64,000 bases of DNA from contig CAZACP010000001.1 of the NCBI GenBank assembly GCA_964483665.1, forward strand, positions 6,358 to 70,357, read 5' to 3'. A program made the translations under genes and the position numbers. Positions 1-57,427 of this stretch are shown piece by piece. Below the pieces are notes generated by a model. That model searched no databases. It was not told the DNA's origin and saw nothing but the letters and a program-made list of their open reading frames with translations. The stretch's first letter is position 1, and each line of letters starts with the position of its first letter. This DNA is from an uncultured Candidatus Saccharibacteria bacterium. GTDB lineage: Bacteria > Patescibacteriota > Doudnabacteria > UBA920.

Positions 1-318
1 AAAGCAAAACAGTATACTCAAAAAAAATTTACGGACTATTTAACGGGCATTGGAAAAAAAATCTTTTTGGACAAAGAGGCTTGGCCCGCGGCGCAGCAAT
101 TGGTATTGCAAATTATTGACAATAATTGGAGCGCGAATTTGGAGTTAATGGATGTTTTAAAAGAAGAGTCGAGCCTGTTTTCTTACGCAACGCAGGATCC
201 GCTTATGGATTTTATTTCCGAGGGGCGTAAGCTATTTACAGAAATGGGAAAGAATATAGAAAAGCAATTTGTCGCGGCAATTTTTTTAAGACTCGCCCAG
301 CAGGGAAAGATTGAGTAA
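1..318 (+). CDS. 3' part of a gene that starts upstream of the window; hypothetical protein
   Basis: Frame 1 is open from nt 1 into the listed 67..318 ORF; no recognisable family. Confidence 0.4.
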   Translation, partial: KAKQYTQKKFTDYLTGIGKKIFLDKEAWPAAQQLVLQIIDNNWSANLELMDVLKEESSLFSYATQDPLMDFISEGRKLFTEMGKNIEKQFVAAIFLRLAQQGKIE

Positions 319-469
319 AAAATGACAAAAATACAAATGCACTTGCAACTATACTTTTTTCATTTATGTCATTTTCGCCGTTTTTGTCATTAAGTCCGTT
401 AAGTAAATTGCTGTGTGGAAGAAAGGAGCAAATGTTGCAAAAGCAGCATTTTTTTTATATAATCCCTTT

Positions 470-754
470 ATGCTTACAAAAGAAGAAGTAGAGAAAATTG
501 CTGTTTTAGCCAGAATTGAACTTACCGAAAACGAGGTGGAAAAGTTTCAAAAAGACCTTTCCGCTGTTTTAGATTACGTGGAAGAGTTAAAAGAGGTGAA
601 TGTGGAAGGTTTGGAAGAGGTAAGCCAGGTAACTGGCTTAGTAAATGTCCAGAGAATGGACGTAGTGGTTGACCATGGAAATAGGGAAGAAATTTTTTCA
701 CAAGCGCCGGAAATGAAAGACGGGTATTTCAAAGTTAAAGCGATTTTGAATTAA
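470..754 (+). CDS. gatC: Asp/Glu-tRNA(Asn/Gln) amidotransferase subunit C
   Basis: MLTKEEVEKIAVLARIELTENEVEKFQKDLSAVLDYVEEL matches GatC; ~94 aa from the internal ATG at 470 (the listed ORF starts at 413); directly upstream of gatA and gatB. Confidence 0.8.
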   Translation: MLTKEEVEKIAVLARIELTENEVEKFQKDLSAVLDYVEELKEVNVEGLEEVSQVTGLVNVQRMDVVVDHGNREEIFSQAPEMKDGYFKVKAILN

Positions 755-856
755 ATAAAATTTGGAAATTAAGTAAAATTAAGTAAAATTTCAGTGCAGT
801 AATTTTTATTTAATTTTACTTAATTATGTTCAATTTTATTTAATATATTTTTAAAA
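755..856. repeat. Conserved AT-rich intergenic element, copy 1 (see 31355..31456); contains the inverted repeat aattaagtaaaatt / aattttacttaatt
   Basis: About 44 nt near-identical to the ftsE|ftsX spacer; ends immediately 5' of the gatA ATG. Confidence 0.7.
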
Positions 857-2347
857 ATGTCTGGCTTTGAATATAAAACTTTAAAAGAGTTACGTGCTTT
901 ATTAGATAGTAAGATGGTTTCGTCTGTAGAACTGACGAAATATTTTTTGTCGCGTATAAAAAATTTAGACAAAGACTTAAACAGTTTTGTTACGGTGTCC
1001 GAAGAAGAAGCTTTAAAAAATGCCAAGGAAGCAGACGAATTCATAAATTCGCCGGGTGAGAATCCTTTTTTATGCGGAATACCATATGCCAGTAAGGACT
1101 TGTTTAATACCAAAGGCATACGGACAACTGCCAGCAGTAAAATTTTAGACAATTTTTTACCGCCATTTGACGCGACGGTAACAAAAAAATTAAAAGAACA
1201 AAAATCTGTTTTATTGGGAAAGACTAATTTAGACGAATTTGCCCACGGCTCCAGCACTGAAACTTCCGCTTACGGGGCTTCTCATAACCCGTGGGATAAA
1301 AATCGAATACCGGGCGGAAGCAGCGGAGGCAGTACAGCCGCGGTAGCCGGAGGGCTTACTCCGTGGGCAACAGCCACTGAAACCGGCGGCAGTATTCGCC
1401 AGCCGGCCAGTCTTTGCGGGGTAAGCGGCTGGAAGCCGACTTACGGCCGGGTAAGCCGCTACGGCGTAATTGCTATGGGTTCTTCCCTCGACTGTCCGGG
1501 CGCAGTTGCTTACACTGTGGAAGACTTGGCTCATTTGGCAGAAATTATGTCGGGACACGACGAACAAGATTCAACTACCAGTCCTATACAAGTTCCCGCT
1601 TACCATAAAAATTTAAATAAAGATATTTCAGGTTTAACTTTAGGTGTTCCCAAGCAATATTTTGTTGACGGAATGGAAGACGGCGTGAGGGAAAAAGTTT
1701 TAGACGCTATTAAGCATTTAGAAAAACTCGGAGCTAAAATAAAAGAGGTAGATTTGCCGAATACCAAATACGGCTCTTTGGTATACGCCATAATTTGTCC
1801 TTCAGAAGTTTCTTCCAATTTAGCCCGCTTTGACGGAATACGTTATGGTCATTCTGCCAAGGATGCTAAAACTTTGCTTGAAACTTACCAAAAAAGCCGG
1901 GGCGAGGGTTTTGGCACCGAATCCAAGCGCAGGATTTTAACCGGCACTTATGTGCTTTCCGCCGGATATTTTGACGCTTACTACCGAAAGGCGCAAAAAG
2001 TCAGGAGACTTATTATAAATGAATTTAACAGCGTTTTTAAAGAAGTAGATGCTTTAATATGTCCTTCTTCGCCGAATGTAGCGGTAAAAATTGGCGGCGC
2101 AAAAGAAAATCCGCTTTTTGGCTATATTGCCGACCAGTTAAATATCCCTTCTTCGCTCGCGGGTTTACCCGCTCTTTCGGTTCCTTGCGGTTTTGCTCGT
2201 CCGAGCGATGGCGAGTCGCCAAGTATGGACGGTTTGCCGGTTGGTCTTCAAATAATCGGTCCGCAGTGGGGAGAGCAGACAATATTTAACATAGGCTACG
2301 CTTACCAGCAGGAAACGGATTGGCATAGGAAACACCCTGGGGTTTAA
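857..2347 (+). CDS. gatA: Glu-tRNA(Gln) amidotransferase subunit A (amidase family)
   Basis: Amidase signature GGSSGGSTAAVAGG and the catalytic Ser-cisSer-Lys context; 496 aa; gatCAB order. Confidence 0.95.
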   Translation: MSGFEYKTLKELRALLDSKMVSSVELTKYFLSRIKNLDKDLNSFVTVSEEEALKNAKEADEFINSPGENPFLCGIPYASKDLFNTKGIRTTASSKILDNFLPPFDATVTKKLKEQKSVLLGKTNLDEFAHGSSTETSAYGASHNPWDKNRIPGGSSGGSTAAVAGGLTPWATATETGGSIRQPASLCGVSGWKPTYGRVSRYGVIAMGSSLDCPGAVAYTVEDLAHLAEIMSGHDEQDSTTSPIQVPAYHKNLNKDISGLTLGVPKQYFVDGMEDGVREKVLDAIKHLEKLGAKIKEVDLPNTKYGSLVYAIICPSEVSSNLARFDGIRYGHSAKDAKTLLETYQKSRGEGFGTESKRRILTGTYVLSAGYFDAYYRKAQKVRRLIINEFNSVFKEVDALICPSSPNVAVKIGGAKENPLFGYIADQLNIPSSLAGLPALSVPCGFARPSDGESPSMDGLPVGLQIIGPQWGEQTIFNIGYAYQQETDWHRKHPGV

Positions 2348-2386
2348 TTTTAAATTTTAAATTTAAAATTTTAATTTGGAAACCCA

Positions 2387-2778: not shown

Positions 2779-4362
2779 GTGAAAATATTTCCATCATCAG
2801 CCGAATATAGGCCTGTAATTGGATTTGAAATCCATATACAGCTGGCAACTAAGTCTAAAATGTTTGGCCGCGCGGCCAATAATCCCGACCAGAAAGAACC
2901 AAATACAGACATAGACGAGGTTAATACCGGCCAGCCGGGAACTTTGCCGGTGGCCAACAAGGAAGCTATACGCCTTGCGGCCATGGTGGGTCTTGCTTTA
3001 AATTGCCAAATTGATGAATGGAGCAAGTTTGACCGAAAGCACTATTTTTATCCTGACTTGCCCAAAGGCTACCAAATTTCGCAGTATGATAAGCCTATTA
3101 GCAGAGATGGGTATCTTGATCTGGTGATAACCCCCTCATCCGTCCCGACTAAAGTCGGGACACCTTCTCCCTCAAGGGGAGAAGGTGATAATGTTATCCG
3201 CAAGCGGATACATATAACACGTGCTCATTTGGAAGAAGATGCGGGGAAAAATATTCACCCGGAGGGCTTGCCTTATTCATTAGTCGATTATAATAGAGCC
3301 GGCGCTCCGCTTTTAGAAATTGTTACAGAGCCAGAGCTGGAGAGCGGGGAAGACGCAAAAGCTTTTTTAACCGAGCTTAGAAACATTGTCCGGTACCTTG
3401 GCGCCAGCAGCTGCGATATGGAAAAAGGCACAATGCGGGTTGAACCGAACATTAGCGTTAGAAAACCCGGCGAAACCGGTTTGCCAAATTATAAAGTTGA
3501 AGTAAAAAATATTAACAGCATAAAATTTGCCCAGGCTGCCATAGACTACGAAATTGCCCGGCAGATAGAAATTTTAAAAGAAGGCGGCACACCCAAGCAG
3601 GTAACTATGGGTTGGGACGAAAAAAATAGCCGCACGGTTGAGCAGCGTTCTAAAGAAGAAGCCAATGACTATAGGTATTTTCCGGATCCGGATTTGCCGG
3701 TTTTGCAGTTTACTAAAGAGTATTTGGAAGACTTAAAAAATAGAATGCCCGAATTGCCCGCGCAAAAAAGAGCTAGGTTTTTAGAAGAGTTTGGTTTGCC
3801 ACAAGCCGATGTAGAGAATTTAATAAATTGGAAAGAACTTGCCAGCTATTTTGAAGATGTGGTTAGTGAAATAGATGAATGGTGGTCTCAGTTTTATCCT
3901 ATGAATTTATCAACAAAAGAAGTTCATAAACAGAACCGTGAGACTTATATAAAAAGAGCTGCTAATTGGTGTCTGCAAGATTTTAGCGCGCTATTGAATG
4001 AAAAAGGTATTAATCCGATGGATAGCAAGATAACTCCGGAAAATTTTGCAGAATTAATTTTTATGTTCCAGGGAAATAAGATATCTATTACTGCTGCCAA
4101 ACAAGTATTTAAAGTAATGTTTGAAAAAGGCGGTGAGCCGGATAATATTGTTGCGGATTTAGGTTTAGAGCAAACTTCAGACGAAGGCGCTATTTCGGCA
4201 GCAATAGACAAGGTCATCACCGCAAATTCAAAAGCAGTGGCAGACTATAAAGCTGGGCAGGAAAAGAGCTTTGGCTTTTTAGTCGGACAGGCTATGAAAG
4301 AACTTAAAGGCAAAGGGAACCCGGGGGTTATAAACGACATTCTAAAAAAGAAATTGATATAG
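2779..4362 (+). CDS. gatB: Asp/Glu-tRNA amidotransferase subunit B, carrying an in-frame repeat-element insertion
   Basis: GTG start; VIGFEIHIQL...RAHLEEDAGK...DYRYFPDPDLP are GatB hallmarks; about 19 extra residues (TPSSVPTKVGTPSPSRGEG) relative to the usual loop. Confidence 0.95.
   Translation: MKIFPSSAEYRPVIGFEIHIQLATKSKMFGRAANNPDQKEPNTDIDEVNTGQPGTLPVANKEAIRLAAMVGLALNCQIDEWSKFDRKHYFYPDLPKGYQISQYDKPISRDGYLDLVITPSSVPTKVGTPSPSRGEGDNVIRKRIHITRAHLEEDAGKNIHPEGLPYSLVDYNRAGAPLLEIVTEPELESGEDAKAFLTELRNIVRYLGASSCDMEKGTMRVEPNISVRKPGETGLPNYKVEVKNINSIKFAQAAIDYEIARQIEILKEGGTPKQVTMGWDEKNSRTVEQRSKEEANDYRYFPDPDLPVLQFTKEYLEDLKNRMPELPAQKRARFLEEFGLPQADVENLINWKELASYFEDVVSEIDEWWSQFYPMNLSTKEVHKQNRETYIKRAANWCLQDFSALLNEKGINPMDSKITPENFAELIFMFQGNKISITAAKQVFKVMFEKGGEPDNIVADLGLEQTSDEGAISAAIDKVITANSKAVADYKAGQEKSFGFLVGQAMKELKGKGNPGVINDILKKKLI
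3130..3186 (+). repeat. MITE-like hairpin element inside the gatB coding sequence, in frame
   Basis: ccccctcatccg + gtcccgac-taaa-gtcgggac + caccttctccc-tcaa-ggggagaagg; same architecture as the copies at 33136 and 33537. Confidence 0.8.
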
Positions 4363-4881: not shown

Positions 4882-5175
4882 CACTTTCCTCCTCTCCGGG
4901 GAAGTATAAAAAATTACAGAGAGAGAGTCAACTATTCACAGATACACAGATAATATGCAGATTGCACAGATAAGCATATTGTCATTCCGAGCGGAGCGAG
5001 GAATCGCTTCGCGATTGTTTATTAACAAGTTTTAGTATTACCGAAAGTTAAGGGATCCTTCGACTCCTCGACAATTTTAATCTAAAAATTGTCTCGTTGC
5101 TCAGGATTACAAAACATGTTGAGATTGGTTATATTTTTACCTATTTTATACCTTAATTTTTTGATTAGAAATAAC

Positions 5176-5461: not shown

Positions 5462-6472
5462 TCATTTTCCTAAAAATTTTTCAACCGGCTTTGCGGTTTT
5501 TGAAAAGTCGGGCGGAAGCCAAATTATTTGTTTACTCTTTCTCCACCACGTAAGTTGGCGTTTTGAATAATGTTTTATGGCGAAAAGCAATTGCGTGAAC
5601 ATTTCATCGTAAGTTAGCTTTTTTTGCAGATACAAAGAAATAAATCGGTATTCAAGGCCAAAACTATTTAAACGTTTCCAAGATAAACCTCTCCCACCTC
5701 TCGCATTCGCTCGAGGCACCCTCTCCATGCTTTGGAGAGGGTGATTGTGTAGGTCTGCGACTTCTTTTATTATTCCTTGCTTAAAGCGCTCTTTAAGGCG
5801 TTTTTCTATTTTTTTATATAAATCTTTTTGATTGGTTTTTATGCCGAGCCATAAAGTAGGGTAGAGGGTAGAGGGCTGGGGCTTGAGTGGGGAAATGGGT
5901 TTTTTTGTTGCCTCGATGATTTCTAACGCGCGGATTAAGCGTCGTTTGTTGAATCTATCAGTGGTACTTGCCCGAGCTGGATCAAGTTTTGCAAGCTGTT
6001 TGTAAAGTTCTTCAGCAGATTTTTTTTCTAAAGCTGCGCGGAGTTTTTTGTTGGGTTTAACATCCGGGAGTTTTTGGTTATAAACGACCGCGTCTATCCA
6101 ATGAGCGGTTCCGCCACATAGAATAGGCAGTTTGCCTCTTTTTAAAACAGCAGAAATTGCTTTTTGCGCGTCCTTCTTAAAAAGCGCGGCAGAGAATTGT
6201 TTTTTTGGGTTTACGTAGTCTATGCAGTGGTGAAAAACGCCTTTGTATCTGTAAAACGCACGGCCGTGTGTTTTTACGGAAATCCATTTGCCCGGGATCT
6301 TGCCCGTGCCTAAATTAAGTCCTTTATAAATTTGCCGGCTGTCTGCGGAAATTATTTCACCGTTAAAACGCTTTGCTAGTTTTACTGCCAGTTCACTTTT
6401 GCCCGAAGAGGTAGGGCCAACAAGTACTAAAATTTTAGATTTTAGATTTAAGATTTTAGATTTTGAAAACAT
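5462..6472 (-). CDS. miaA: tRNA dimethylallyltransferase
   Basis: P-loop GPTSSGKSELAVKLA...IISADSRQIYKGL; the N-terminal SKSKILNLKSKIL is encoded by the tttagattttag word repeat. Confidence 0.9.
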   Translation of the reverse strand: MFSKSKILNLKSKILVLVGPTSSGKSELAVKLAKRFNGEIISADSRQIYKGLNLGTGKIPGKWISVKTHGRAFYRYKGVFHHCIDYVNPKKQFSAALFKKDAQKAISAVLKRGKLPILCGGTAHWIDAVVYNQKLPDVKPNKKLRAALEKKSAEELYKQLAKLDPARASTTDRFNKRRLIRALEIIEATKKPISPLKPQPSTLYPTLWLGIKTNQKDLYKKIEKRLKERFKQGIIKEVADLHNHPLQSMERVPRANARGGRGLSWKRLNSFGLEYRFISLYLQKKLTYDEMFTQLLFAIKHYSKRQLTWWRKSKQIIWLPPDFSKTAKPVEKFLGK

Positions 6473-6659: not shown

Positions 6660-6691
6660 AAATTCGTTTTTTCATGGTTTTGTGGTATAAT
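6660..6691 (+). promoter_or_regulatory. Candidate extended -10 promoter (tgg-tataat)
   Basis: tgtggtataat at 6681-6691, about 100 nt upstream of the 6799 start. Confidence 0.35.
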
Positions 6692-6798
6692 TTAGCTACA
6701 GAATAATAAATTTATACACTACCGATACCTACAGAAACTTTAAAGCATTGACATTGCATAATATTGTAAATTTATCTCTAAAATTAAAAATTACACTT

Positions 6799-8147: not shown

Positions 8148-9209
8148 ATGAAAAAATTTTTTATTTTTCTAATCCCTGCGCTTTTGTTGTCAGCGGGTTG
8201 CGACGTTTTTTCCAAAGGAGGCAGCGCGGGGCTTTCAAAAACTATAAATGGCGGAGTTGACTGGATTTTAGCCAACAAGCAGGATGGCGGCAGCGGGAGC
8301 ATGCAGGCAGCCAATATTTCCAAGTTGGAAATTGACCCAAATAATCGGGAGAATATTTACGCGGGAAGCTATAACGGCGGGTTGTTTTTGTCTACCGACA
8401 GCGGCGGAACTTGGAAAAATATATTAAGCAACAGCACGGTTTTTGATTTTGCGGTTAATATGGCAAACCCCAAAATTATTTATGCGGCAGGCGACATTGG
8501 GGGGTTGGGAAGAGTGGTTAAAACATCAGACGGCGGAAAAAGTTGGCTTAAAGCTTACAACGAGTCAACGCCCAATAATCCGGTTAGGAGCATTGCCCTA
8601 AACCCCTCAAACCCCGAACATCTGGTTATAGGAACAGACTCGGGGACGGTTATAAAAAGCACTGATGGGGGCTTAAATTGGCAGCTTTTAAAAAATTTTT
8701 CCAGCAAAATTAACAGAATATATTGGACAAACAGCGGGGTCTATGTATTAGTAAGAGAAAAGGGTTTGTTTAAAGGCAGCGGGGTAGGTGATGATTTTAC
8801 CGATTTAACTTCCGGGCTTAGAAGCGAAGGACTGCTTAACCAATTTTCTAAAACCGGTTCGGTAAAAATATTTAACCAGGCGTATGTTGACCCTTTAAGT
8901 AGCAATCTTTTGTATGTAACTACGGATATTGGCTTGTTTAAGTCAATAGATTTAGGAAAAAATTGGACAGCTGTAAAATTGCCGGTAAAACAGGAAGCTT
9001 TAAACGCCAGGCCAATAGTAGTAGCTAAGCAAAATAGTAATACAGTCTTGACCGCCATAGGTTCTATTGTGTATAAATCTACAGACGGGGGAAATAGTTT
9101 TCAAACTCAAAACGTGCCTTTTTTAAACGCTTTTGTAAACTACTTAGTTATGGATCCCGTATTGCCTCAAATAATGTATGTGGGAGGGTATGTAAACCAA
9201 AACAATTAA
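8148..9209 (+). CDS. Lipoprotein with BNR/Asp-box repeats (beta-propeller, Ycf48/sialidase-like)
   Basis: Lipobox LLLSAGC; repeated S/T-x-D-G-G-x-(T/S)-W motifs (TDSGGTWKN, TSDGGKSWL, STDGGLNWQ, STDGGNSFQ). Confidence 0.7.
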   Translation: MKKFFIFLIPALLLSAGCDVFSKGGSAGLSKTINGGVDWILANKQDGGSGSMQAANISKLEIDPNNRENIYAGSYNGGLFLSTDSGGTWKNILSNSTVFDFAVNMANPKIIYAAGDIGGLGRVVKTSDGGKSWLKAYNESTPNNPVRSIALNPSNPEHLVIGTDSGTVIKSTDGGLNWQLLKNFSSKINRIYWTNSGVYVLVREKGLFKGSGVGDDFTDLTSGLRSEGLLNQFSKTGSVKIFNQAYVDPLSSNLLYVTTDIGLFKSIDLGKNWTAVKLPVKQEALNARPIVVAKQNSNTVLTAIGSIVYKSTDGGNSFQTQNVPFLNAFVNYLVMDPVLPQIMYVGGYVNQNN

Positions 9210-9226
9210 CAATTTACGATTAACAA

Positions 9227-9790
9227 TTGACCATGATCGATCAAATTATAAACAATCATAAACCAGAATTTGAAAAAGCTATAGAACACTATTTGCACGA
9301 ACTTTCGTCGGTCCGCACAGGCAGGGCAAACCCGGCTTTGCTTAATACTGTTACAGTAGAAAGCTATGGCGCAAAAATGTCTTTAGAACAGGTAGCCTCT
9401 GTTACCGTGAGTGACGCTAAAACTTTAGTAATAAGCCCGTGGGACAAAAGCCAACTTCAGGCCATAGAAAAAGGCATTCAGCTGGCTAACTTAGGTTTTA
9501 ATCCTTCGAACGACGGTATTGTAATTCGAATTATTTTACCCGCTCTTTCTGAAGAGCGAAGAAAAGAAATGGTAAAAATGGTCGGGCAGATTGCTGAGAA
9601 AGGAAAAATTGCTATTCGAAATGTAAGGGAAAGCGTAATAAAAGAAATGAAAAAAGCGGAAAGCGACGGAAAAATTTCCAAGGACGATTTAACTCACGGG
9701 CAAAAAAAACTGCAGGAGAGCGTGGACAAATATAACGAGGAAATTAAAAAACACGCGGAAAGCAAGGAAAAAGAAGTAATGACTGTTTAA
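9227..9790 (+). CDS. frr: Ribosome recycling factor
   Basis: 187 aa; RRF length and the conserved RTGRANPALL block. Confidence 0.9.
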   Translation: MTMIDQIINNHKPEFEKAIEHYLHELSSVRTGRANPALLNTVTVESYGAKMSLEQVASVTVSDAKTLVISPWDKSQLQAIEKGIQLANLGFNPSNDGIVIRIILPALSEERRKEMVKMVGQIAEKGKIAIRNVRESVIKEMKKAESDGKISKDDLTHGQKKLQESVDKYNEEIKKHAESKEKEVMTV

Positions 9791-10239: not shown

Positions 10240-11379
10240 ATGGTAGCAACAATACTTATTTTTATATTAATTTTAGGTTTGCTGGTGTTAGTTCACGAGT
10301 TTGGACATTTTATAGTCGCTAAAAAGAGCGGAATGGTTGTGCATGAGTTCGGTTTTGGTTTCCCGCCCAGGCTAATTGGCCTAAAAAAAATTCAGGGTAA
10401 AAGGAAGGTTGTTTGGGGGCATCAAAAAAGCATTTCAGATTCAGAATTAAACCAGGGCGATGAAAATACTCTATATTCAATAAACAGCATACCGCTTGGC
10501 GGTTTTGTTCGTATAATGGGGGAGAACAATGAACACGAAAACAATCCCAAGAGTTTTATAAACAAACCCTTTTGGCCGAGATTTTTTACGCTTGTGGCAG
10601 GCGTGATAATGAACTTTATATTGGCCGTTGTGATTTTTGGGGTTGGTTTTGGCATTGGTTTGCCTGCCGCTTTTGAAAAGTCTAGCGAAATTCCGAAGTA
10701 CGCAGTAATGGAAAATGCAAAGACAGCGATTATAGAAGTTATAAAAGACCAGCCCGCGGACAAAGCGGGAATTAAGTCGGGAGATTTTATAGTAAGCATA
10801 GACAATAACAAATTTACCAAGGCGGAAGAATACAGGAATTACATACGTTCCAATTCCGGCAAGGAGTTTGCTTTTGAAATAGAACGTGGCGGGCAAATTT
10901 TTAATTTTAAATTAGTTTCCGTGTCTAATCCGGCTGAAGGCCAGGGTCCGACCGGAATTGCATTAACAATGCTAGGGAAGCTAAGATACCCTTGGTATTT
11001 AGCACCATACGAAGGTTTGAAAATGGCCATTGTGCAAACCGGCGCTATTTTTTCCGGACTCTATAAGTTGCTTACTTCCGGCCTCGGTCTTTCTTCTTTG
11101 GGCGGGCCGGTAAAAATAGCTCAGCTCACCGGACAAGTGGCTGATATGGGAATTATTTATTTAATGCAGTTTACCGCGTTTTTGTCGTTAAATTTAGCGG
11201 TTTTAAATATTATGCCGTTTCCGGCTTTAGACGGCGGCCGGGTGGTATTTTTAATAATAGAAAAAATTCGGGGCAAAAGGAATAATCAAAAGTTTGAGCA
11301 AATGGCCAATGCCGCGGGTTTTGCGCTACTGCTTTTGCTTATGTTGGTTGTTACAATTAAGGACGTGAAGGGTTTTTAG
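10240..11379 (+). CDS. rseP: RIP zinc metalloprotease (site-2 protease) with PDZ domain
   Basis: HEFGHF zinc motif in TM1; PDZ (GIKSGDFIVSIDN); C-terminal LDGG motif. Confidence 0.9.
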   Translation: MVATILIFILILGLLVLVHEFGHFIVAKKSGMVVHEFGFGFPPRLIGLKKIQGKRKVVWGHQKSISDSELNQGDENTLYSINSIPLGGFVRIMGENNEHENNPKSFINKPFWPRFFTLVAGVIMNFILAVVIFGVGFGIGLPAAFEKSSEIPKYAVMENAKTAIIEVIKDQPADKAGIKSGDFIVSIDNNKFTKAEEYRNYIRSNSGKEFAFEIERGGQIFNFKLVSVSNPAEGQGPTGIALTMLGKLRYPWYLAPYEGLKMAIVQTGAIFSGLYKLLTSGLGLSSLGGPVKIAQLTGQVADMGIIYLMQFTAFLSLNLAVLNIMPFPALDGGRVVFLIIEKIRGKRNNQKFEQMANAAGFALLLLLMLVVTIKDVKGF

Positions 11380-11459
11380 ACCGTAAAAGTTAATTTTAAA
11401 TTTTAAATTCTAAATTTTAATTTACCCTATTTACTCCATATATCTGCGAAACAACAATT

Positions 11460-12698
11460 ATGAGACAATCAAAATATTTTTTAAAGACCAGCAAAACTAA
11501 GCCGGCCGAAGACACATCGGCAAATGCTATTTTGCTCGAGCAGGGCGGGTTTGTTTATAAAGAAATGGCAGGAGTTTACGCTTATTTGCCTTTGGGTTTT
11601 AGAGTTATAGAAAAAATAAAAAATATTATTAGAGAAGAGATGAACGCTATCGGTGGCCAAGAATTGATTATGACTAGCCTGCAGCGCAAGGAGGTTTGGG
11701 AAAAAACTAATCGTTGGGATGATAATAAAGTGGATGTGTGGTTTAAATCTAAACTAAAAAATGGCGCTGACGTAGGATTAGCATGGTCACATGAGGAGCC
11801 AATTACGACTATGATGCTAAATTATATAAGCAGCTATAGAGATTTACCCGCTTATGTTTATCAATTTCAGACGAAACTTAGAAACGAACTCAGGGCAAAA
11901 AGCGGAATTTTAAGAGGCCGAGAGTTTGTGATGAAAGATTTGTATTCATACAGCCTTAGTCCTGAGGCTCATGAAGAATTTTATCAAAAAGCAATTTCAG
12001 CATATTTAAAAATTTTTGAACGGGTTGGTTTGGGAGAATCGACATTTTTAACTTTCGCTTCGGGCGGAGCGTTTACACAGTTCAGCCACGAATTTCAGAC
12101 CGTGCTTGAAGCTGGTGAAGATGTTATTTATTTAGACCGTAAGAAAAAAATAGCGATTAACAAGGAAGTTTTAACCGAGGAAGTATTAAAACAGCTAAAT
12201 TTAAAACGTGAGGAATTAGAAGAAGTAAAAGCCTCAGAAACCGGCAATATTTTTAATTTTGGCACTACTAAATCTGAACAAATAGGTTTGTATTATAAAG
12301 ATCAACAAGGAAGCAGAAAGCCTGTCATTTTAGGTTCGTATGGTATTGGTATTACAAGAGTAATGGGAGTAATTGTAGAAAAATTCCACGACGAAAAAGG
12401 CATAATCTGGCCGGAGAGCGTGGCGCCGTTTAAGGTGCATCTAATTAGTTTAAAAGGTGCCGAGAACGAAGCAGAAAATATCTACCAAGCTTTATTAAAA
12501 GAAGGAATTGAGGTATTATTAGATGATCGGGAAGTAAGCGCGGGGGCTAAATTTGCCGACTCGGATTTAATTGGAATCCCGCATAGGGTGATAGTTTCAC
12601 CTAAGACCATTGAACAATCATCCGTAGAAATTAAAAAACGATCAGATATAGAATCTAAATTAGTTAAAACTAGGGAGTTAGTTAAATACCTACAATAA
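11460..12698 (+). CDS. proS: Prolyl-tRNA synthetase, compact form without the INS editing domain
   Basis: Class II motifs and an anticodon-binding C-terminus; only 412 aa. Confidence 0.8.
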   Translation: MRQSKYFLKTSKTKPAEDTSANAILLEQGGFVYKEMAGVYAYLPLGFRVIEKIKNIIREEMNAIGGQELIMTSLQRKEVWEKTNRWDDNKVDVWFKSKLKNGADVGLAWSHEEPITTMMLNYISSYRDLPAYVYQFQTKLRNELRAKSGILRGREFVMKDLYSYSLSPEAHEEFYQKAISAYLKIFERVGLGESTFLTFASGGAFTQFSHEFQTVLEAGEDVIYLDRKKKIAINKEVLTEEVLKQLNLKREELEEVKASETGNIFNFGTTKSEQIGLYYKDQQGSRKPVILGSYGIGITRVMGVIVEKFHDEKGIIWPESVAPFKVHLISLKGAENEAENIYQALLKEGIEVLLDDREVSAGAKFADSDLIGIPHRVIVSPKTIEQSSVEIKKRSDIESKLVKTRELVKYLQ

Positions 12699-12833
12699 AT
12701 CCGAAATTCGAATATCGAAATTCGAAACAATACAAAAATCTAAAATAAAAAATTCAAAAGTCAGTAAGGGTTTGGGAATTTTTAATTTAGGATTTTTTCG
12801 AATTTCGTATTTAGCATTTCGAATTTTTAATTT

Positions 12834-13886: not shown

Positions 13887-14000
13887 AAATATTGACAAAA
13901 ACGACGTAAATGACAAAAATAAAAAATAAAATACAGATTTTTGGGTGGTATTTTAAATTTTTGTCATTTTTATTATTTTTGATCATTTTTCATTTCTTCA

Positions 14001-15364: not shown

Positions 15365-17317
15365 ATGAAGGATCCATTTTTAATTGAAACCAAAGTTCCA
15401 AGCAGCGAAAAAAAAGCTTCTTTAGACTGGGATGAGAGCGCTTCGGATATAAACAGCACAGTTACAGATATTCACGATTCGGAAAGAAGGCAACATGAAT
15501 TTTATTTAACAAGGATTTTTTTGTTGCTAATTTTAGTAATTTTTTCTTCGCGTCTTTTTTATTTGCAAATAATTAAAGGGTCCTATTTTCAGCAAATGGC
15601 TGAAAATAACCGTACCCGAAGCCAGGTATTAGAAGCACCTAGAGGCTTAATTTTTGATATTCGGCAAAAGCCCTTGCTGGAAAATATTGCCGGGTATAAT
15701 TTAATTGCTGTGCCTTTTGACTTGCCAAAAGAGAATTTTGAAGCCGAGATCGTTCGGCTAGCTTCCGTCTTGAATATTAGCCAGGAAGAAATTTATGACA
15801 GTTTAAAAAATATTAACAAGCGTTCAATTACGCCGGTGATAGTAAAACAAGATATTTCTCCTGAAATGGCTATTCTGTTTCAAACCCGGGCGTATGATTT
15901 TCCGGGTTTTTCCGTGCAGCAGTCGCCCATTCGAAATTATTTTTTCCCCGAACAATTTTCCGCTTTGTTAGGCTATACTGGCTTGGCCAATAGTCAAGAT
16001 ATACTGCGCTTAAATTTAAGCGATTCTGACACGGCCACGCAAGTTGGCAAGCAGGGGCTTGAGCTTGAGTATGAAAAGTTTTTAAGAGGTTCAGCCGGTC
16101 AAAATCAAGTGGAAATAGACTCCACAGGCAAGATTTTAAAAGTATTGGGTCAAAAACCCAGCAGGCCAGGGGATTCTTTAATATTAAACATTGATTCAGA
16201 ACTGCAAAAAAAACTTTACGAAGAGCTGATAAAAAACAGCGGGGGAAAAGTGCGAGCCGCGGCAGTGGCATTAAACCCTAAGACCGGGCAGGTTTTGGCT
16301 TTGCTTTCGTTGCCGGGTTTTGACACAAATTTGTTTTCGCACGGTATAACCCAAGCCGACTATCAGCTTTTGTTAAACGATCCGAAAAAACCTTTTTTAA
16401 ACAGGGCAATTTCCGGGCAGTACCCGCCTGGTTCCACGGTAAAACCTATGGTTGCGGCCGCAGCTTTGGCGGAAGGGATTGTAAATGAAGATACAATAAT
16501 AAATGACAAAGGGGTTTTGGTTATTCCAAATCAATTTGATCCGACTGTCGCGTATAATTTTGTCGGCTGGAAACTTTCGGGCTTAGGTCCAATGACCGTT
16601 AAAAGCGCTATTGCACAAAGTTCGGATATTTATTTTTATACGGTTGCGGGCGGGCATCCGAATTCCAAAATTGCAGGTTTGGGCGTTTTAAAATTGGCGG
16701 AGTATTACCGCAAATTTCATTTAAGCCAGCCTTTAGGTATAGATCTTCCGGGTGAAAAACCCGGAGTGGTCGCGGATCCTTCTTGGAAGGAAAAAGCTTT
16801 TGCTAATGACCCGATTTTAAAAAAATGGTATTTGGGCGACACCTACCACATTGGCATAGGCCAGGGCGACATGCTAACTACGCCGCTTCAGGTGGCTTAT
16901 TGGACTGCTGTTTTTGCTAACAACGGAGTCGGCATGAAACCGAAAATATTAAACAGCGTAGTTTCTTCGGAAGGTAAAAATGTTTTTGAAAACAAGCCTG
17001 AAATTTTAGCAAATAAATTTTTAAGCGATGAAATCATAAAAGTTGTCCAAGAGGGTATGAGAGAAACTGTTCTTGAAGGCAGCGGCCGGCAGCTTTTAAG
17101 TCTTCCTATTACTTCCGCCGGGAAAACCGGCACTTCGCAATTTGACGGCTCAGACCCCAAAAAAACTCATGCATGGTTTACGGCATACGCGCCTTTTGAA
17201 GACCCTCAAATAGTCATAACTGTGCTGGTTGAAGCTGGAGGCGAGGGGCATGCCGCGGCTGTGCCTGTAGTTAAAGAAGCATTTTCGTGGTGGGCAAAAG
17301 AGAGGTATGGAAAGTAG
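15365..17317 (+). CDS. mrdA: Penicillin-binding protein 2 (transpeptidase)
   Basis: PBP dimerisation domain plus transpeptidase STVKP, SxN and KTGT motifs. Confidence 0.9.
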   Translation: MKDPFLIETKVPSSEKKASLDWDESASDINSTVTDIHDSERRQHEFYLTRIFLLLILVIFSSRLFYLQIIKGSYFQQMAENNRTRSQVLEAPRGLIFDIRQKPLLENIAGYNLIAVPFDLPKENFEAEIVRLASVLNISQEEIYDSLKNINKRSITPVIVKQDISPEMAILFQTRAYDFPGFSVQQSPIRNYFFPEQFSALLGYTGLANSQDILRLNLSDSDTATQVGKQGLELEYEKFLRGSAGQNQVEIDSTGKILKVLGQKPSRPGDSLILNIDSELQKKLYEELIKNSGGKVRAAAVALNPKTGQVLALLSLPGFDTNLFSHGITQADYQLLLNDPKKPFLNRAISGQYPPGSTVKPMVAAAALAEGIVNEDTIINDKGVLVIPNQFDPTVAYNFVGWKLSGLGPMTVKSAIAQSSDIYFYTVAGGHPNSKIAGLGVLKLAEYYRKFHLSQPLGIDLPGEKPGVVADPSWKEKAFANDPILKKWYLGDTYHIGIGQGDMLTTPLQVAYWTAVFANNGVGMKPKILNSVVSSEGKNVFENKPEILANKFLSDEIIKVVQEGMRETVLEGSGRQLLSLPITSAGKTGTSQFDGSDPKKTHAWFTAYAPFEDPQIVITVLVEAGGEGHAAAVPVVKEAFSWWAKERYGK

Positions 17318-17397
17318 TATTATGTACTAGGTATAATGTATAATGTGTGGGGAAGGTATTTTATATATTATACTTAATACTTTATACACAATACGCG

Positions 17398-18228
17398 ATG
17401 CTTATAGACGGAAAAAAAATTGGCCAGGAAATTTTAAATAATTTATATAGCGAAGTAAAAAAGCTTCCCTTTCAGCCGATTTTTTGCGATATTTTGGTTG
17501 GCAAAGACCCTGCTTCCGTGCAGTACGTCAAAATGAAAGGCCAGGCGGCTGAAAAAATCGGCATTGCGGTGCATAAGGCCGAGTATCCGGAAAATATTAC
17601 TACCGAAGAGTTGTTAACAGAAATACACAAGCTGAATCAAATAAAAAATATGTGCGGACTCATAGTCCAACTGCCTTTGCCGCCGCACATTAACCAGGCA
17701 GAGGTTTTAAATTCAATAGACCCGGCAATAGACGTAGATGTGACCGGAGAAGTTAATTCGCAAAAATTTTATTTAGGTGAGCCGAATGCGTTAGAATTTC
17801 CGACCGCAGTCGCTATATTAAATTTACTTGATTCCACCGGCGAAAATTTAAAAGAAAAAAATTTTTTGGTTATGGGTTTTGGTATGCTGGTAGGCAGGCC
17901 GGTGAGCTACTTGCTCGAAAAAAAGGGTTATAAAGTCGCGGTTGCAAGAAGCAAAACGGCTAATACAAATGAGTTATTAAAAAACGCAGATGTGGTCATT
18001 TCAGCGACCGGCAAACCGAACATAGTGACAGGAGAAAAAATAAAGCCCGGGTCTATAATTATAGACGCCGGAACTTCCGAAAGCGAAGGCGGTATAGTGG
18101 GGGATGTTGATTTTGAATCTGTAAATAAAATTGCAAGTTTTGTTTCCCCGGTGCCGGGCGGCGTAGGAGCGGTAACCGTTGCCATGCTTTTAAGCAATGT
18201 TGTCCAAGTTGCAAAAACTATGAACTAA
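17398..18228 (+). CDS. folD: Methylene-THF dehydrogenase/methenyl-THF cyclohydrolase
   Basis: MLIDGKKIGQEIL start; conserved FolD blocks; the upstream 51 nt of the listed ORF are intergenic word repeat. Confidence 0.9.
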   Translation: MLIDGKKIGQEILNNLYSEVKKLPFQPIFCDILVGKDPASVQYVKMKGQAAEKIGIAVHKAEYPENITTEELLTEIHKLNQIKNMCGLIVQLPLPPHINQAEVLNSIDPAIDVDVTGEVNSQKFYLGEPNALEFPTAVAILNLLDSTGENLKEKNFLVMGFGMLVGRPVSYLLEKKGYKVAVARSKTANTNELLKNADVVISATGKPNIVTGEKIKPGSIIIDAGTSESEGGIVGDVDFESVNKIASFVSPVPGGVGAVTVAMLLSNVVQVAKTMN

Positions 18229-19885: not shown

Positions 19886-19886
19886 A

Positions 19887-20976: not shown

Positions 20977-21070
20977 CTACAGAAGGCTACAGAAAGAATT
21001 CACTACGGATACCTACAGAAAACTACAGAATCTATATATTCAAGTAATCATAATCTATTAATCATATTCT

Positions 21071-21271: not shown

Positions 21272-21377
21272 TTTTATCCCTAATTCATACTTCGCGCTTC
21301 TCGAATTATGAATTTAGGATTTAATAATTAGAATTTGTTTCGGATTTCGATATTCGAATTTAGGATTTAATACGTTT

Positions 21378-21803: not shown

Positions 21804-21863
21804 TTTAAAATTTTAATATCAAAAATTTAAAATTAATGAGCCCCTTTCGGGGCAACTAAATCT

Positions 21864-22196: not shown

Positions 22197-22278
22197 AGTA
22201 AACAATTAACCATAAACAATTTACAATTAACTCTTGTGGGAGATCTGACAAGATCGTTTACCACGAAAGGAATAGAGT

Positions 22279-38712: not shown

Positions 38713-38808
38713 ATGTTTTTACTTCGTAAAAAAACAATTAATGATTAACTAAATAACAATTAACTGCGAGTGCAGTCCTGTTAATCGTGAATTGTAAATT
38801 GTTAATTG

Positions 38809-40692: not shown

Positions 40693-40728
40693 GGTGGGAA
40701 AACAATTAACAATTAACAATTAACTACA

Positions 40729-40762
40729 ACCTGCTCGCGGTATTGACGGGCAGGCTTTTTTT
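40729..40762 (+). terminator. Rho-independent terminator
   Basis: cctgctcgcggtattgacgggcagg followed by ctttttttt. Confidence 0.75.
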
Positions 40763-48493: not shown

Positions 48494-48536
48494 AAAGTAA
48501 ATGACAAAAATTAAATAATTGACAAAAATGACAAAA

Positions 48537-51177: not shown

Positions 51178-51401
51178 TTTATGGAAAAACAGGGTAATAA
51201 AGAATCTGAAAACCGAGAGACGAAAGGGCATAATTATGAATCTGACATGGATTTTGCCGATCCGTTTGAAGAAGAATTTTCGGCTCCTTCTGACCCATTC
51301 AGCCCACCTGATCTAGAAATTAAAGGAAAAAAAGAGTAACTGCAGTCGGTAGTATGTTGCATGTTAACGCAAAATTTTACTACTTACTACTTACTACTAC
51401 C

Positions 51402-51887
51402 ATGATTTTGCCAATAAAAAAACACCCGGATCCAGTGCTTAGGGCTAAAACAGAGCCAGTGGTTTTTCCTTTGTCTCCACAAATAGAGAAATTAACCAAA
51501 GATATGTTTGACACAGTAAAGGCCGCAGACGGTATCGGGCTTGCCGCGCCGCAGGTCGGCAAGAGTGTAAAATTAATTGTCATAAACTTGGAAAAATCCG
51601 GCGTTCCTTTGTTCGCGCTTTACAACCCGCGCATTAAGTCAAAAGGATTTAGAAAAGTGGAAATAGAAGAAGGCTGTCTTTCTTTGCCGGGAATTTACGG
51701 TATGGTTAAGCGGCCAAAAAAAGTTATTATAGAAGCCCAAAACCACAAGGGAGAAAAAATTCTAATTCGCGACGACGGCTGGGTTTCCAGGGTTGCCCAG
51801 CATGAAATAGACCACATAAACGGAATTTTAATAATAGACCTTATAAAGAAATACACAAAGGGAGAAAATTTACTAAATACGAATTAA
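51402..51887 (+). CDS. def: Peptide deformylase
   Basis: GIGLAAPQVG, EGCLSLPG and HEIDHING motifs; the upstream tacttactac words are intergenic. Confidence 0.9.
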   Translation: MILPIKKHPDPVLRAKTEPVVFPLSPQIEKLTKDMFDTVKAADGIGLAAPQVGKSVKLIVINLEKSGVPLFALYNPRIKSKGFRKVEIEEGCLSLPGIYGMVKRPKKVIIEAQNHKGEKILIRDDGWVSRVAQHEIDHINGILIIDLIKKYTKGENLLNTN

Positions 51888-51950
51888 TACGAATATACTA
51901 ATTTTGTTCCCATTCGTATATTAGTAAGTATTAGTATTTTGGTAAAAAAT

Positions 51951-52490: not shown

Positions 52491-52586
52491 CCCATTCGAA
52501 CCTGCGAATTAATCCGAATAATCCTTATACTTATGTATTTAGACTTCGGGTCATTCGGATGTTGTTCGGATATTAGGAGCGCTACT

Positions 52587-53141: not shown

Positions 53142-53251
53142 TTTTGTCTACTTGTATTTTTTATTTCTGTAGATATTTGGATAAAAAAATATTCGGGATC
53201 CAGAAGCCTAGGGGTTTAGGCTGTCGGATCCCGAAATTAGCATGGTCGAGC

Positions 53252-53587: not shown

Positions 53588-53729
53588 CACTCACTCCTTT
53601 ATTTCGGACTAAAGAAAAATATCAGAGAGAGTTTTGTCAATAATCTACGGAATATGTATACTGCACTACAGATGTCTATAGAGTTTTTGTAGGTATCTGT
53701 AGATTCGTATAATTTGTAGTTTTGTAGAT

Positions 53730-55717: not shown

Positions 55718-55883
55718 CTTTAAAATCTGGTTTTTATACCAGTTGATTATACCATATTACTTTCGCAGATACACAGATGAAGAAAATAGCACAGATTAGT
55801 ACCTATTACTGCTGCTCAAGAATTGTAGCCCCCTATTTATAAAGACATACGTGTAATCTGTGTTAAATTTGTGTATCTGCGAT

Positions 55884-56576
55884 CTACATTTTTTTAGTTA
55901 AGCCGTTTTCAACCTCATCGAGAATCTTTTTAGCGTGTTCTTTGCCGCCAAGACCAAAGGCAATGCCGCCGGCAATGGCTATCATGGCTACAATAGCTCT
56001 AAATAAGTCTATTAAGAAGTCCGTGGCAATTTGGAGTTGGGAAAGCGAAGCAATAAGCGCAAAAATTACAATTGCCCATTTGGTAATGCTGGCCAGCGCA
56101 GAAGCTGAAGCGTTAAGCCCGCTGGCTTTAACCGAAGATCCGACAATTCCTGAGAAAAAGTTTGCAGCTAAAATTCCCAAAAGCAAAATTGCCATGGCTA
56201 TTATGACCTGGCCGCCGTAAGCGAGCACGCTGTCGTAAAAGAAGCGACTTACTTCATTAAGTCCTAAAATTTCAGCGGTTGCAATAAAGCTGCCTAAGAA
56301 AAAGAACCACTTTATTATCCAGGCGCCTAAAGCGGAAAGGCTGAGTTTTTTTCCAACCTTCTCACCTAAAGAAGCAAGTCCTAGCGAATTGGCAAGCTGG
56401 TCTATTTTTATCGCGTTTAAGATTTTTTCAACAAAGTTAGAAAGCAGGCTGCCCAAAAGCCAGCCGAAAATTATTACAATAATCGCCGCAAGTAAATTTG
56501 GTAAAAACCAAAGTACTCTCTCGTAGAGGTCGCCAAGCGATGTTAATACAGTTGATTGATATGTCATTAGATTCAC
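55884..56576 (-). CDS. Polytopic membrane protein with conserved TM-helix repeats (MscS-N-terminal-like)
   Basis: Repeated Ala/Gly/Ile-rich helices. Confidence 0.5.
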   Translation of the reverse strand: MNLMTYQSTVLTSLGDLYERVLWFLPNLLAAIIVIIFGWLLGSLLSNFVEKILNAIKIDQLANSLGLASLGEKVGKKLSLSALGAWIIKWFFFLGSFIATAEILGLNEVSRFFYDSVLAYGGQVIIAMAILLLGILAANFFSGIVGSSVKASGLNASASALASITKWAIVIFALIASLSQLQIATDFLIDLFRAIVAMIAIAGGIAFGLGGKEHAKKILDEVENGLTKKM

Positions 56577-56775
56577 AGATACACGGATAACACAGATAAC
56601 ACAGATTTTGTGTTAGTGAGATCCGTGAGATTAATTTATTATTTATTATTATCTTTGTTTCGTTAAGGTTTCCGGTATCGACCTTAACCGGGTTGTTTAA
56701 TTTTAGATTTTTGATTACAGATTTTAGATTGTGTTAGAATCTAAAATCCAAAATTTTTAATTTGCGATTATAATT

Positions 56776-57216
56776 TTATTCGCCCACAATTTTTACCCAC
56801 GCTTCCCTGCTTCTACCGCCGTCCAGTTCTACAAAAAAGACGCTTTGTTTAGGACCTAAGAAAAGTTCGCCACGCTGAACTATGACACTTTCCGAGGCAC
56901 CTAAGAAAAAGGCTTTTACATGGGCATGGCCGTTGCTTCGTTCGTTGGGCGCAATATTTTGCCTAACCTCGAATAAGTCGTGGCTGTAGCTGGCATCAAG
57001 CGGAAATAGTTTGTATAAAGTTTTCATAAAGTCCTGCATAAGCAGCGGCTCGTTATGATTTATTTTTATAGTTGCCGTTGTATGGGGGCTAAAAATAGTA
57101 ATTAAGCCTTCCTTTATGCCGCTTTCAACAACCGCAGTTCTAATGTGCGTGGTTATGTCGAGCATCTCGAATTGTTTTTTGGTTTCTAAAAGCAGTTTTT
57201 TTTGATAGATTTTCAT
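56776..57216 (-). CDS. yjbQ: YjbQ/UPF0047 family protein (secondary thiamine-phosphate synthase)
   Basis: HTTATIKINHNEP...GHAHVKAFFLG. Confidence 0.8.
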   Translation of the reverse strand: MKIYQKKLLLETKKQFEMLDITTHIRTAVVESGIKEGLITIFSPHTTATIKINHNEPLLMQDFMKTLYKLFPLDASYSHDLFEVRQNIAPNERSNGHAHVKAFFLGASESVIVQRGELFLGPKQSVFFVELDGGRSREAWVKIVGE

Positions 57217-57427
57217 AAAGCTACAGAACTATTTGTTATACGAATCTACAGAAAACTACAGAATCGCAAAATTAAAACCTTTTATATTTAAAATGGCGGA
57301 TAATGCTTAAAATTATTTCCCACCCAAATAAATTTTTCTTAGTTTCCAAACTAAAGATTTTCATTTTTGTTTCTACTTTTCTCTAAGCACTATTCGTTAA
57401 TCTCTAAATATATTATACCACAAATTT

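Follow-up and report, generated by a model that had tools for sequence, protein, structure and literature searches.

The intergenic spacers of a 64,000-nucleotide (nt) stretch of DNA from an uncultured Candidatus Saccharibacteria bacterium (GTDB lineage Patescibacteriota, Doudnabacteria, UBA920; assembly GCA_964483665.1, contig CAZACP010000001.1, positions 6,358 to 70,357 of the forward strand), referred to here in its full length as the window, contain short sequence words repeated in direct and inverted orientation, which raises the question of what these words are and how they came to be there. An earlier note on the sequence held that every spacer is built from a private word of its own and suggested either recurrent insertion and excision of tiny elements or arrays of binding sites for a DNA-binding protein family. 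We are confident that several families of short repeat elements, dispersed and hairpin-shaped, have colonised the spacers. The best reading, by analogy with known systems, is that these are elements resembling REPINs and miniature inverted-repeat transposable elements (MITEs), or homing genes, with iterated-word ends and a PD-(D/E)XK nuclease partner of the GxxExxY family. Selfish word-array hairpin elements, taken as description and mechanism jointly, have a probability of roughly 55%.

Spacers were defined as the gaps in a greedy, non-overlapping set of open reading frames (ORFs), which gave 50 spacers of at least 40 nt with a total length of 6,582 nt. In these spacers, 8-mers repeated within their own spacer on either strand cover 1,409 nt, compared with 382 ± 80 nt in dinucleotide shuffles and 416 ± 77 nt in length-matched coding segments. 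The comparison of k-mers between intergenic and coding DNA that the earlier note had proposed, run here on the window, showed that the words are strongly excluded from genes, with intergenic-to-coding counts of 16:1 for CACAGAT, 12:1 for CTACAGAA, 13:2 for TGACAAAA, and 6:0 for AAATTCGA and with coding DNA eight times larger. Distances between same-strand repeats peak at 7 to 10 nt, at 6 to 8 times the shuffle level. Inverted-repeat coverage of the spacers (13.5%) is similar to that in a 50-kb Escherichia coli control (10.4%) as terminators and repetitive extragenic palindromic (REP) sequences would lead one to expect, whereas direct-repeat coverage is about four times higher (10.8% versus 2.5%). 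The unusual part is the direct iteration of words at a period of 7 to 10 nt. All of the word occurrences that had been listed are present at the coordinates given, and their repetition lies far above that of shuffles and coding DNA. However, the extent of the phenomenon was overstated, since only 16 of the 50 spacers are significant at a P value of ≤0.01 and 19 lack any repeated 8-mer. The words are not private to single spacers either; about seven families recur across many spacers, as they do in the earlier note's own list.

Most arrays consist of a run of words, a loop, and a run of the reverse-complement words, which together form long, AT-rich, imperfect hairpins. Such arm-loop-arm hairpins lie at positions 755 to 856, 12699 to 12833, 30518 to 30676, 32375 to 32482, 38713 to 38808, and 55768 to 55883 and are also found in locus L159. 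The element at 755 to 856, between gatC and gatA, is a complete hairpin of ATTAAGTAAA words (fold z score of −4.9) and has a second full-length copy at 31355 to 31456 (z score of −5.0), the two being about 87% identical over 79 nt, with the loop included. The same architecture, built from different words, is common in 80 Patescibacteria loci. In locus L065, an element of about 120 nt with arms TCTCTACGAATTACGAAT..ATACGAATGAAT is present five times, and duplicated elements also occur in L088 and L008.

Comparison of close relatives reveals that the spacers turn over by replacement. The genes of strain L002 are 93 to 99% identical to those of the window, and the spacers at 6695 to 6796, 9209 to 9230, and 22961 to 23048 are swapped edge to edge for other word families. 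The AACAATTAAC-family array at 9209 to 9230 is replaced by TGACAAAA words in L002, and the CTACAGAA-family array at 6695 to 6745 (plus strand), in a 5′ leader downstream of a TGGTATAAT box, gives way to a TTCGGAT-word hairpin. Sister species carry other words at the same sites; strains L145 to L147, at ≥99.6% identity to the window, are too similar to it to be informative in this respect. Between strains, collinear spacers have not mutated more than genes, which rules out spacer hypermutation and indicates turnover by replacement. The insertion and excision of tiny elements foreseen in the earlier note is thus supported by the recurrence of whole elements, by the wholesale swaps of spacers, and by a tmk-thyA site that is filled in the window and empty in a sister genome.

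The tmk-thyA site holds one of three array pairs, overlooked previously, that bracket small genes of selfish type. The inverted word pair around the ORF at 27170 to 27544 had been noticed correctly, but the gene had not been named. This plus-strand gene encodes a GxxExxY protein, a minimal PD-(D/E)XK nuclease (Pfam PF13366, 98.5 bits against a cut-off of 22; TIGR04256, 99.6 bits against a cut-off of 35). Residues D69, E79, and K81 of its D..ExK motif are invariant in 28 homologs. In the confident AF2/AlphaFold model (pLDDT of 95.5), the nearest structures are Cas4 SSO0001, lambda-exonuclease-like enzymes, tRNA-splicing endonuclease, and Hjc; from the invariant motif and this model, the nuclease is likely active. 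A sequence search of the PDB found no homolog, and a search of a phage collection for GxxExxY gave no match. The family is listed as being of unknown function (PMC3424549), and no account of flanking arrays was found in the searched literature on GxxExxY, PF13366, TIGR04256, and intergenic repeats of the candidate phyla radiation (CPR). The left arm of the cassette lies at 27118 to 27154 on the plus strand (CACAGATA-CGCAGATA...CACAGATA; inverted-repeat z score of 7.5), and the right arm lies at 27545 to 27578 on the minus strand, with inverted words (TTATCTGAG-TATCTGTGA). With the cassette, the tmk-thyA spacer is 480 nt long in the window; it is 17 to 88 nt long in sister genomes and is empty in L016 and others of them.

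The CACAGATA family is the commonest word type of the spacers. Its link to this gene also escaped the earlier note: in conserved form it flanks GxxExxY genes in different phyla, and it represents the ends of GxxExxY cassettes. Among 47 GxxExxY genes gathered from other contigs with G+C contents of 33 to 67%, 41 have inverted repeats with a z score of >3 between their flanks. The arms are composed of three or four words of the form [CT]RCNRAT, including CACAGATA, CGCAGATA, CGCGGATA, CACGGAT, CACTGAT, CACTAAT/CACGAAT, TACAGAT, and CGCAGAG, at a spacing of 8 to 10 nt (mode, 9 nt), with a consistent orientation (126:27 upstream and 119:50 downstream). On their outer side the arms end sharply, as in AGACCRCRGATAC...GTATCYGYGGTCT. 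Conservation of these cassette ends extends from Patescibacteria to Bacteroidota, Alphaproteobacteria, Gemmatimonadota, and Fusobacteriota. Among cultured bacteria with completed genomes, the layout recurs in Bacteroides finegoldii (radA|TTCACCACAGAGGACGCAGAGG...CCTCTGTGTCCTCTGTGGTGAA), in Sphingomonas parapaucimobilis (fabD|TTCACGCGAAGG...CTTCGCGTGAA|fabG), and next to the GxxExxY genes of Fusobacteria ZRK30 and Gemmatirosa kalamazoonensis; in Treponema saccharophilum it is weaker, each arm having a single word. Of the seven plasmid hits, two lack the layout: that of Persicobacter has no evident arrays, and that of Prevotella nigrescens has a 17-nt direct repeat. In the latter locus (L155), the GxxExxY gene is flanked by the direct repeat AGGATTTGGAAAGATTT at 195 to 220 and 780 to 800, which may stem from duplication of a target or of a leader.

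ORF-less arrays share their ends with these cassettes and outnumber them. The window contains one GxxExxY gene and at least six ORF-less CACAGAT-type arrays, whose arms share the cassette end TTCACAGATACNCAGATAA, as is also the case in L087. Single ORF-less arms of this type lie on the plus strand at 4937 to 4971 (TTCACAGATACACAGATAA..GCAGAT..CACAGATAA) and 23484 to 23517 (CCGCAGATACGCAGATT..ACAGAT) and in reverse orientation, on the minus strand, at 57455 to 57494. Two ORF-less hairpins have CACAGAT-type arms: that at 30518 to 30676 has forward words at 30518 to 30546 and reverse words at 30638 to 30676, and that at 55768 to 55883 has CGCAGATACACAGAT..CACAGAT forward and ATCTGTG..TATCTGCGATCT reverse (RNA fold z score of the spacer, −4.1). 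The ORF-less CACAGATA/CACGGATA array at 56573 to 56640 comprises four copies in forward orientation and, after them, reverse words that are degenerate. In Gemmatirosa, a 3+3-word hairpin occurs at 16 places on two megaplasmids compared with 2 gene places, and one copy has no gene within 700 nt; the hairpin is absent from the other 72,554 plasmids of the collection. A regular-expression scan of 50 kb of a Gemmatirosa plasmid with a G+C content of 74% found the word near background there and was therefore uninformative. The CTACAGAA and xCGAAT words fall within the range of words beside the GxxExxY genes of L098, L059, and L106 to L115. These two families are thus probably cassette ends as well and, judging from sequence, may belong to paralogous GxxExxY cassettes outside the window.

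A GxxExxY cassette is also found between two RNase_T-like genes near def/fmt in L157 (2458 to 2916) and L088 (3987 to 4443). At the RNase_T-like pair of the window, there is just a 42-nt spacer of xCGAAT words (52491 to 52532), which may be a remnant or a target site.

The two other bracketed genes belong to different families. A gene of the 23S_rRNA_IVP/four-helix-bundle family (PF05635, 61.3 bits) lies on the plus strand at 2387 to 2752, between gatA and gatB of the gatC-gatA-gatB operon, and shares 46% identity with its counterparts in L078 and L087; a search of viral contigs for IVP found nothing. Its left arm, in the gatA-IVP gap, is an array of TTTAAATTTT-type words at 2343 to 2377 on the plus strand (inverted-repeat score of the flanks, 49; z score of 10.4), and its right arm consists of inverted TTTAAATTT words at 2753 to 2778 on the minus strand. 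ORF-less arrays of the IVP type occur at 11385 to 11430 (TTTAAATTTTAAAT; a blastn alignment of 2338 to 2396 with 11370 to 11469 is 94% identical over 34 nt) and at 21805 to 21840. The third gene, at 33187 to 33537 on the plus strand after rplI, is a small DUF559 (Vsr-like endonuclease) gene (NCBIfam DUF559, 94.9 bits; Pfam DUF559/MTES_1575). It is bracketed by a 50-nt GC-rich inverted repeat (score of 51; z score of about 15), with the left copy at 33137 to 33187 on the plus strand (GCCTTCTCCC..GGGAGAAGG..., overlapping the start codon) and the right copy, found by alignment, at 33533 to 33582 on the minus strand; DUF559 genes of L008 and L105 are bracketed in the same style.

Several further loci recall these cassettes. 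In L008, whose NusG is 88% identical, a DUF559 cassette at 17833 to 18180 follows tmk, where the window has the GxxExxY cassette; thyA was not found in that locus, so the two sites are at most putatively orthologous. In L157, a small ORF that by eye is GIY-YIG-like (3470 to 3950) is bracketed by TTTTGTCATTCCGAGCGAAGC...GGTCGGGATGACAAAA, and the stretch at 4975 to 5075 of the window (TTGTCATTCCGAGCGGAGCGAGGAATC...CCTCGACAA) looks like an ORF-less relic of this cassette type. GC-rich motifs akin to that stretch occur at 53195 to 53245 and 60880 to 60935 of the window and at 17640 to 17700 of L002. In L065 (12553 to 14598), AATTTCTA/ATTAGAAA arrays seem, by eye, to flank inserts within an apparent 23S rRNA gene, and these inserts contain small ORFs of 74 and 92 amino acids with no Pfam match.

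In structure, an arm consists of two to five copies of a family-specific word of 7 to 9 nt at a period of 7 to 10 nt. Two inverted arms enclose either a short loop, in which case the unit is ORF-less, REPIN/MITE-like, and 60 to 150 nt long, or a small selfish-type gene encoding GxxExxY, IVP, or DUF559, the last with a GC-rich inverted repeat and no words. The iterated words could provide the cassette-encoded nuclease with several binding sites at either end of the element, much as some transposon ends hold several transposase sites or as REP sequences flank a RAYT gene, and the nuclease would promote copying of the cassette, and of ORF-less arm pairs in trans, into spacers by a transposition-like or a homing/gene-conversion-like route. 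ORF-less versions would derive from, or be targeted by, ORF-carrying versions, and decay of ORFs and arms would leave solo direct arrays. That the GxxExxY nuclease binds or cuts the words is a credible but tentative proposal, and the families without GxxExxY might work in the same way. A broader conjecture, held with still less assurance, is that GxxExxY proteins mobilise, or act as homing enzymes for, an unrecognised, multi-phylum class of selfish elements with ends of iterated 8- to 9-nt words, that they move ORF-less pairs in trans, that IVP, DUF559, and GIY-YIG genes are parallels, and that such elements are the main builders of intergenic DNA in the reduced genomes of Patescibacteria.

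A number of observations weigh against these proposals. The GxxExxY protein is a minimal nuclease core of 124 amino acids, with no separate DNA-binding domain in the model. A relative with 89% identity (P0002) sits at the same tmk/thyA site, which indicates vertical persistence rather than frequent movement, and in the one available pair, the filled tmk-thyA site and the empty site of L016, neither a target-site duplication nor an excision footprint is definable. At the high-GC loci L123, L125, and L142, the arms are in other arrangements. Apart from the full-length pair described above, spacer pairs in the window mostly share just 15- to 35-nt arms, and the five copies in L065 have conserved arms and often nonconserved loops, both of which are atypical for copy-paste MITEs. 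The words flanking IVP genes differ between genomes yet stay complementary, so a conserved pairing of word and protein is seen only for GxxExxY, and in the data examined no gene accompanies the TGACAAAA, AACAATTAAC, and other families. Slippage contributes to the arrays too, given the perfect period-8 microsatellites at 2937 to 3061 of L024 (CTAACTGC, eight copies) and 7367 to 7534 of L054 (AACTTAGA, nine copies), which suggest active slippage on the same kind of word.

In one alternative the arms would act in RNA, the inverted words pairing in the transcript as RNase III sites, terminators, or mRNA stabilisers that insulate operons and being merely a convenient way to build and lengthen stems. 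The spacers fold much better than shuffles, with a mean z score of −2.9 (ordinary terminators included) compared with −0.6 for coding DNA and with 60% of spacers below −2 compared with 17% of coding segments. The variable IVP-flanking words keep their complementarity, the IVP family is known from rRNA intervening sequences excised by RNase III (PMC11270868), the L065 arrays seem by eye to flank insertions in an apparent 23S rRNA gene, and cassettes lie inside operons (gatA|IVP|gatB, fabD|GxxExxY|fabG, and tmk|GxxExxY|thyA). However, mismatches between arms show no sense-strand bias toward G-U pairs (49 versus 39; P = 0.34) and are mostly transversions (185 of 273), which indicates that arrays of sites fit better than precise RNA stems. 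Moreover, direct arrays without an inverted partner, those beginning at 20977, 48494, and 319, are unstructured (z scores of +1.6 to −0.9), arrays also occupy spacers between divergent genes (4885 to 5088 and 53591 to 53729), and the words beside GxxExxY genes are conserved in sequence across phyla and G+C contents, a conservation that structure alone would not need. A role in RNA is therefore unlikely as the main explanation, although RNA stems and selfish elements are not mutually exclusive.

A purely local origin, in which slippage and template switching make words and quasi-palindromes in situ with neither mobility nor a protein partner, would agree with the perfect period-8 arrays of L024 and L054, with small indels between strains inside the array at 13887 to 14000, and with the differences in words between genomes. 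It would not account for the same words and 15- to 35-nt arms in many unlinked spacers, for full-length element copies, or for one word type flanking GxxExxY genes in several phyla, and the collinear spacers are not hypermutable between strains. Arrays at unlinked sites of the window also have ends and neighbouring bases in common that go beyond the word. Local slippage thus adds array length but is insufficient, because ends are shared across loci and phyla, and we regard it as quite improbable as the sole source. A further possibility is that each word family is an operator array for a host transcription factor or nucleoid protein and serves to define regulons or to shape the chromosome. In its favor, the words are short, recur at a roughly helical spacing of 7 to 10 nt, are strongly excluded from coding DNA, and are often near promoters, as in the array at 6680 to 6745 downstream of TGGTATAAT, and TGACAAAA includes the −35-like TTGACA. 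The idea that word identity follows operon type is nevertheless contradicted by the data: a given word is shared by housekeeping genes with no functional relation to one another, arrays are as frequent downstream of genes as upstream and take both orientations, and orthologous spacers of strains with 93 to 99% identical genes, like those of sister species, carry different words. No expanded family of DNA-binding proteins was seen in the window. Because alleles are swapped between near-identical strains, host regulator sites are very unlikely, and of the binding-site proposal there survives as plausible only the version in which the sites belong to small nucleases encoded by the elements. An assembly or contamination artefact, which had been named as a refutation, has a negligible probability, and nothing was found in its favor. 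Independent ENA and JGI assemblies from other samples are 100% or 99.6 to 99.99% identical to the window over stretches of 9 to 22 kb, spacers included, with the identity running over more than 40 kb, which excludes an artefact of assembly, and cultured bacteria with finished genomes show the same architecture.

Among known systems, the REPIN-RAYT system is the closest analogue of the selfish hairpin elements proposed here. As in that system (PMC3116915, PMC3337134), a single small gene is flanked by inverted repeats, ORF-less inverted doublets with the same ends are scattered between the genes of that genome in greater number than the gene itself, each genome has repeat types of its own, and at least some sites are vertically inherited. 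Two inverted repeats with a short spacer, as in a REPIN, are found at 755 to 856, 30518 to 30676, 55768 to 55883, and 38713 to 38808 and in L159. Membership fails on two defining features, since both the enzyme class and the repeat unit differ. The protein is the PD-(D/E)XK nuclease GxxExxY, unlike the HUH/Y1 IS200-like transposase of RAYTs, and no Y1 transposase family is among the recorded Pfam matches (about 5.4 to 61.8 kb) or the scanned ORFs, some small ORFs being matchless and a few not scanned. A REP sequence is described as an imperfect palindrome of 20 to 40 nt headed by a conserved GTAG or CGTC (PMC3733652), whereas the unit here is two to five direct, nonpalindromic 7- to 9-nt words, with no such head in the arm alignment. 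In addition, copy numbers here are modest.

The other close analogue is the free-standing homing endonuclease genes, such as seg/mob of T-even phages, together with PD-(D/E)XK, GIY-YIG, and Vsr-like homing endonucleases. Like these, the small PD-(D/E)XK, DUF559/Vsr-like, and L157 GIY-YIG-like genes lie between conserved housekeeping genes, are present or absent among close relatives, and vary in cassette type, with DUF559 after tmk in L008 versus GxxExxY in the window. No homing endonuclease genes are known that have iterated-word inverted repeats or leave ORF-less hairpin copies behind. Like MITEs, the ORF-less elements have terminal inverted repeats and dispersed intergenic copies, and like the ends of Tn7, Mu, Ac/Ds, and En/Spm, which bind transposase, their ends hold several short direct repeats. 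Unlike MITEs and transposons, they have no DDE transposase partner, their loops are poorly conserved, and they are much shorter. At tmk-thyA, the single filled and empty pair available, no target-site duplication is evident. Their ORF-carrying relatives encode solely GxxExxY, IVP, or DUF559, none of which is a known transposase. Cyanobacterial short tandemly repeated repetitive (STRR) sequences are heptamers. Like STRR sequences and the tandem repeats of Borgs (PMC9879509), the words are short (7 to 8 nt), intergenic, and fast evolving, but those sequences form long head-to-tail arrays that lack systematic inverted partners and bracketed genes, whereas here there are two to five imperfect units with linkers, usually in inverted pairs. 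Like the 23S rRNA intervening sequences with IVP genes (PMC11270868), the IVP cassette has a PF05635 gene bracketed by complementary flanks; unlike them, it lies in the protein-coding gatA|gatB operon, and its arms are iterated words.

Several other candidates were rejected. Intrinsic terminators are defined by short GC-rich stems with a T run after them, and the word arms are AT-rich, 25 to 45 nt long, and without T runs; classical terminators occur separately within the same spacers, for example, at 22985 to 23010 and 23540 to 23575. CRISPR arrays have regular repeats of 24 to 48 nt that alternate with unique spacers near cas genes. TIGR arrays have 36-nt units with box C/D and lie near Tas (Nop-domain) genes (PMC12045711). 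For CRISPR and TIGR arrays alike, a period of 7 to 10 nt with two to five units is wrong, as are the partner genes, and no cas or Nop-domain family is among the Pfam matches on record or the scanned ORFs. DnaA boxes were discarded since CACAGATAA differs from TGTGGATAA, and promoter −35 repeats were discarded for TGACAAAA since its words lie on both strands and also downstream of genes. Stop-codon padding does not apply, the words not being consistently stop rich across frames.

If the proposal is correct, it would provide the first functional context for GxxExxY (PF13366/TIGR04256), a large and widespread nuclease family, and perhaps for small IVP and DUF559 genes too. The elements would then be a non-HUH, non-DDE counterpart to REPIN-RAYT systems and would account for the origin and turnover of intergenic DNA in the ultra-small genomes of Patescibacteria. 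Since cultured Bacteroides, Sphingomonas, and Gemmatirosa share the architecture, the hypothesis is directly testable. The arrays also matter for annotation, because they are routinely swallowed into predicted N termini and generate spurious small ORFs. The word-derived N termini noticed earlier, those of miaA (6437 to 6466), folD (17300 to 17397), dut (25286 to 25364), and def (51354 to 51401), are indeed word derived and are over-extensions of the start codon into word arrays; shorter versions of folD and other genes are called in other assemblies.

The remaining arrays of the window fall into the families named above and a few more. The CTACAGAA family includes a direct array of five words without an inverted partner right after the nusG stop codon (20977 to 21035, plus strand; RNA z score of +1.6), a hairpin of forward words, a loop, and TTCTGTAG..CCGTAGATTCGTATA (32375 to 32482), and an array with ..ACGAATCTACAGAAAACTACAGAAT (57220 to 57271, plus strand). 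At 53650 to 53727, in a spacer between divergent genes, CTACGGAA/CTACAGAT words in forward orientation are combined with TTTGTAG/ATCTGTAG words in reverse orientation. The TGACAAAAAT family has one forward and three reverse words at 319 to 400 and further arrays at 13887 to 13990, 29370 to 29415, and 48494 to 48536; it is also present in the sister genome L008 and in replacement spacers of strain L002. The TTCGAAT/ATTTCGAA family forms the hairpin at 12699 to 12833 (RNA fold z score of −6.3), with related arrays at 21280 to 21375, 25286 to 25364, 51871 to 51944, and 52491 to 52532. The AACAATTAAC family forms the hairpin at 38713 to 38808 and has related arrays at 9205 to 9235, 22197 to 22232, and 40700 to 40730. 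The TAAGTAGT family has a direct array after the thyA stop codon (28405 to 28445, plus strand) and reverse-complement words in the def leader (51371 to 51401).

The window has a G+C content of 39%. Its nearest relatives, anchored by NusG, are metagenome-assembled genomes that carry the label Candidatus Doudnabacteria or Patescibacteria, the highest NusG identity being 93%. The housekeeping operons comprise gatCAB, miaA, mreBCD-PBP2, secE-nusG-rplKA, dcd-dut-tmk-thyA-folA, prfA, pyrG, gltX, and def-fmt; tRNA and Rfam scans of the window gave no matches and no rRNA. A 66-amino-acid ORF in the nusG-rplK gap (21071 to 21271) has no family match; every strain assembly calls it, and the word families on its two sides differ. 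Upstream of rplK, a hairpin CATACTTCGCGCTTCTCGAAKTATG followed by TTTxGGAT occurs in the window (21285 to 21335), in L007 (about 10650), in L008 (about 10680), and in L010 (10883 to 10930); there is no Rfam match to it at the gathering threshold, and it is probably an L11/L1 operon leader. Cumulative GC skew climbs steadily to about 42 kb and is flat thereafter, and the gene strand switches there from mostly plus to mostly minus. At about 32490 (32485 to 32500) there is a perfect DnaA box, TTATCCACA, and a cluster of TTATCCACA-like boxes is found in a 517-nt spacer of L054 (7967 to 8483), which is probably oriC.

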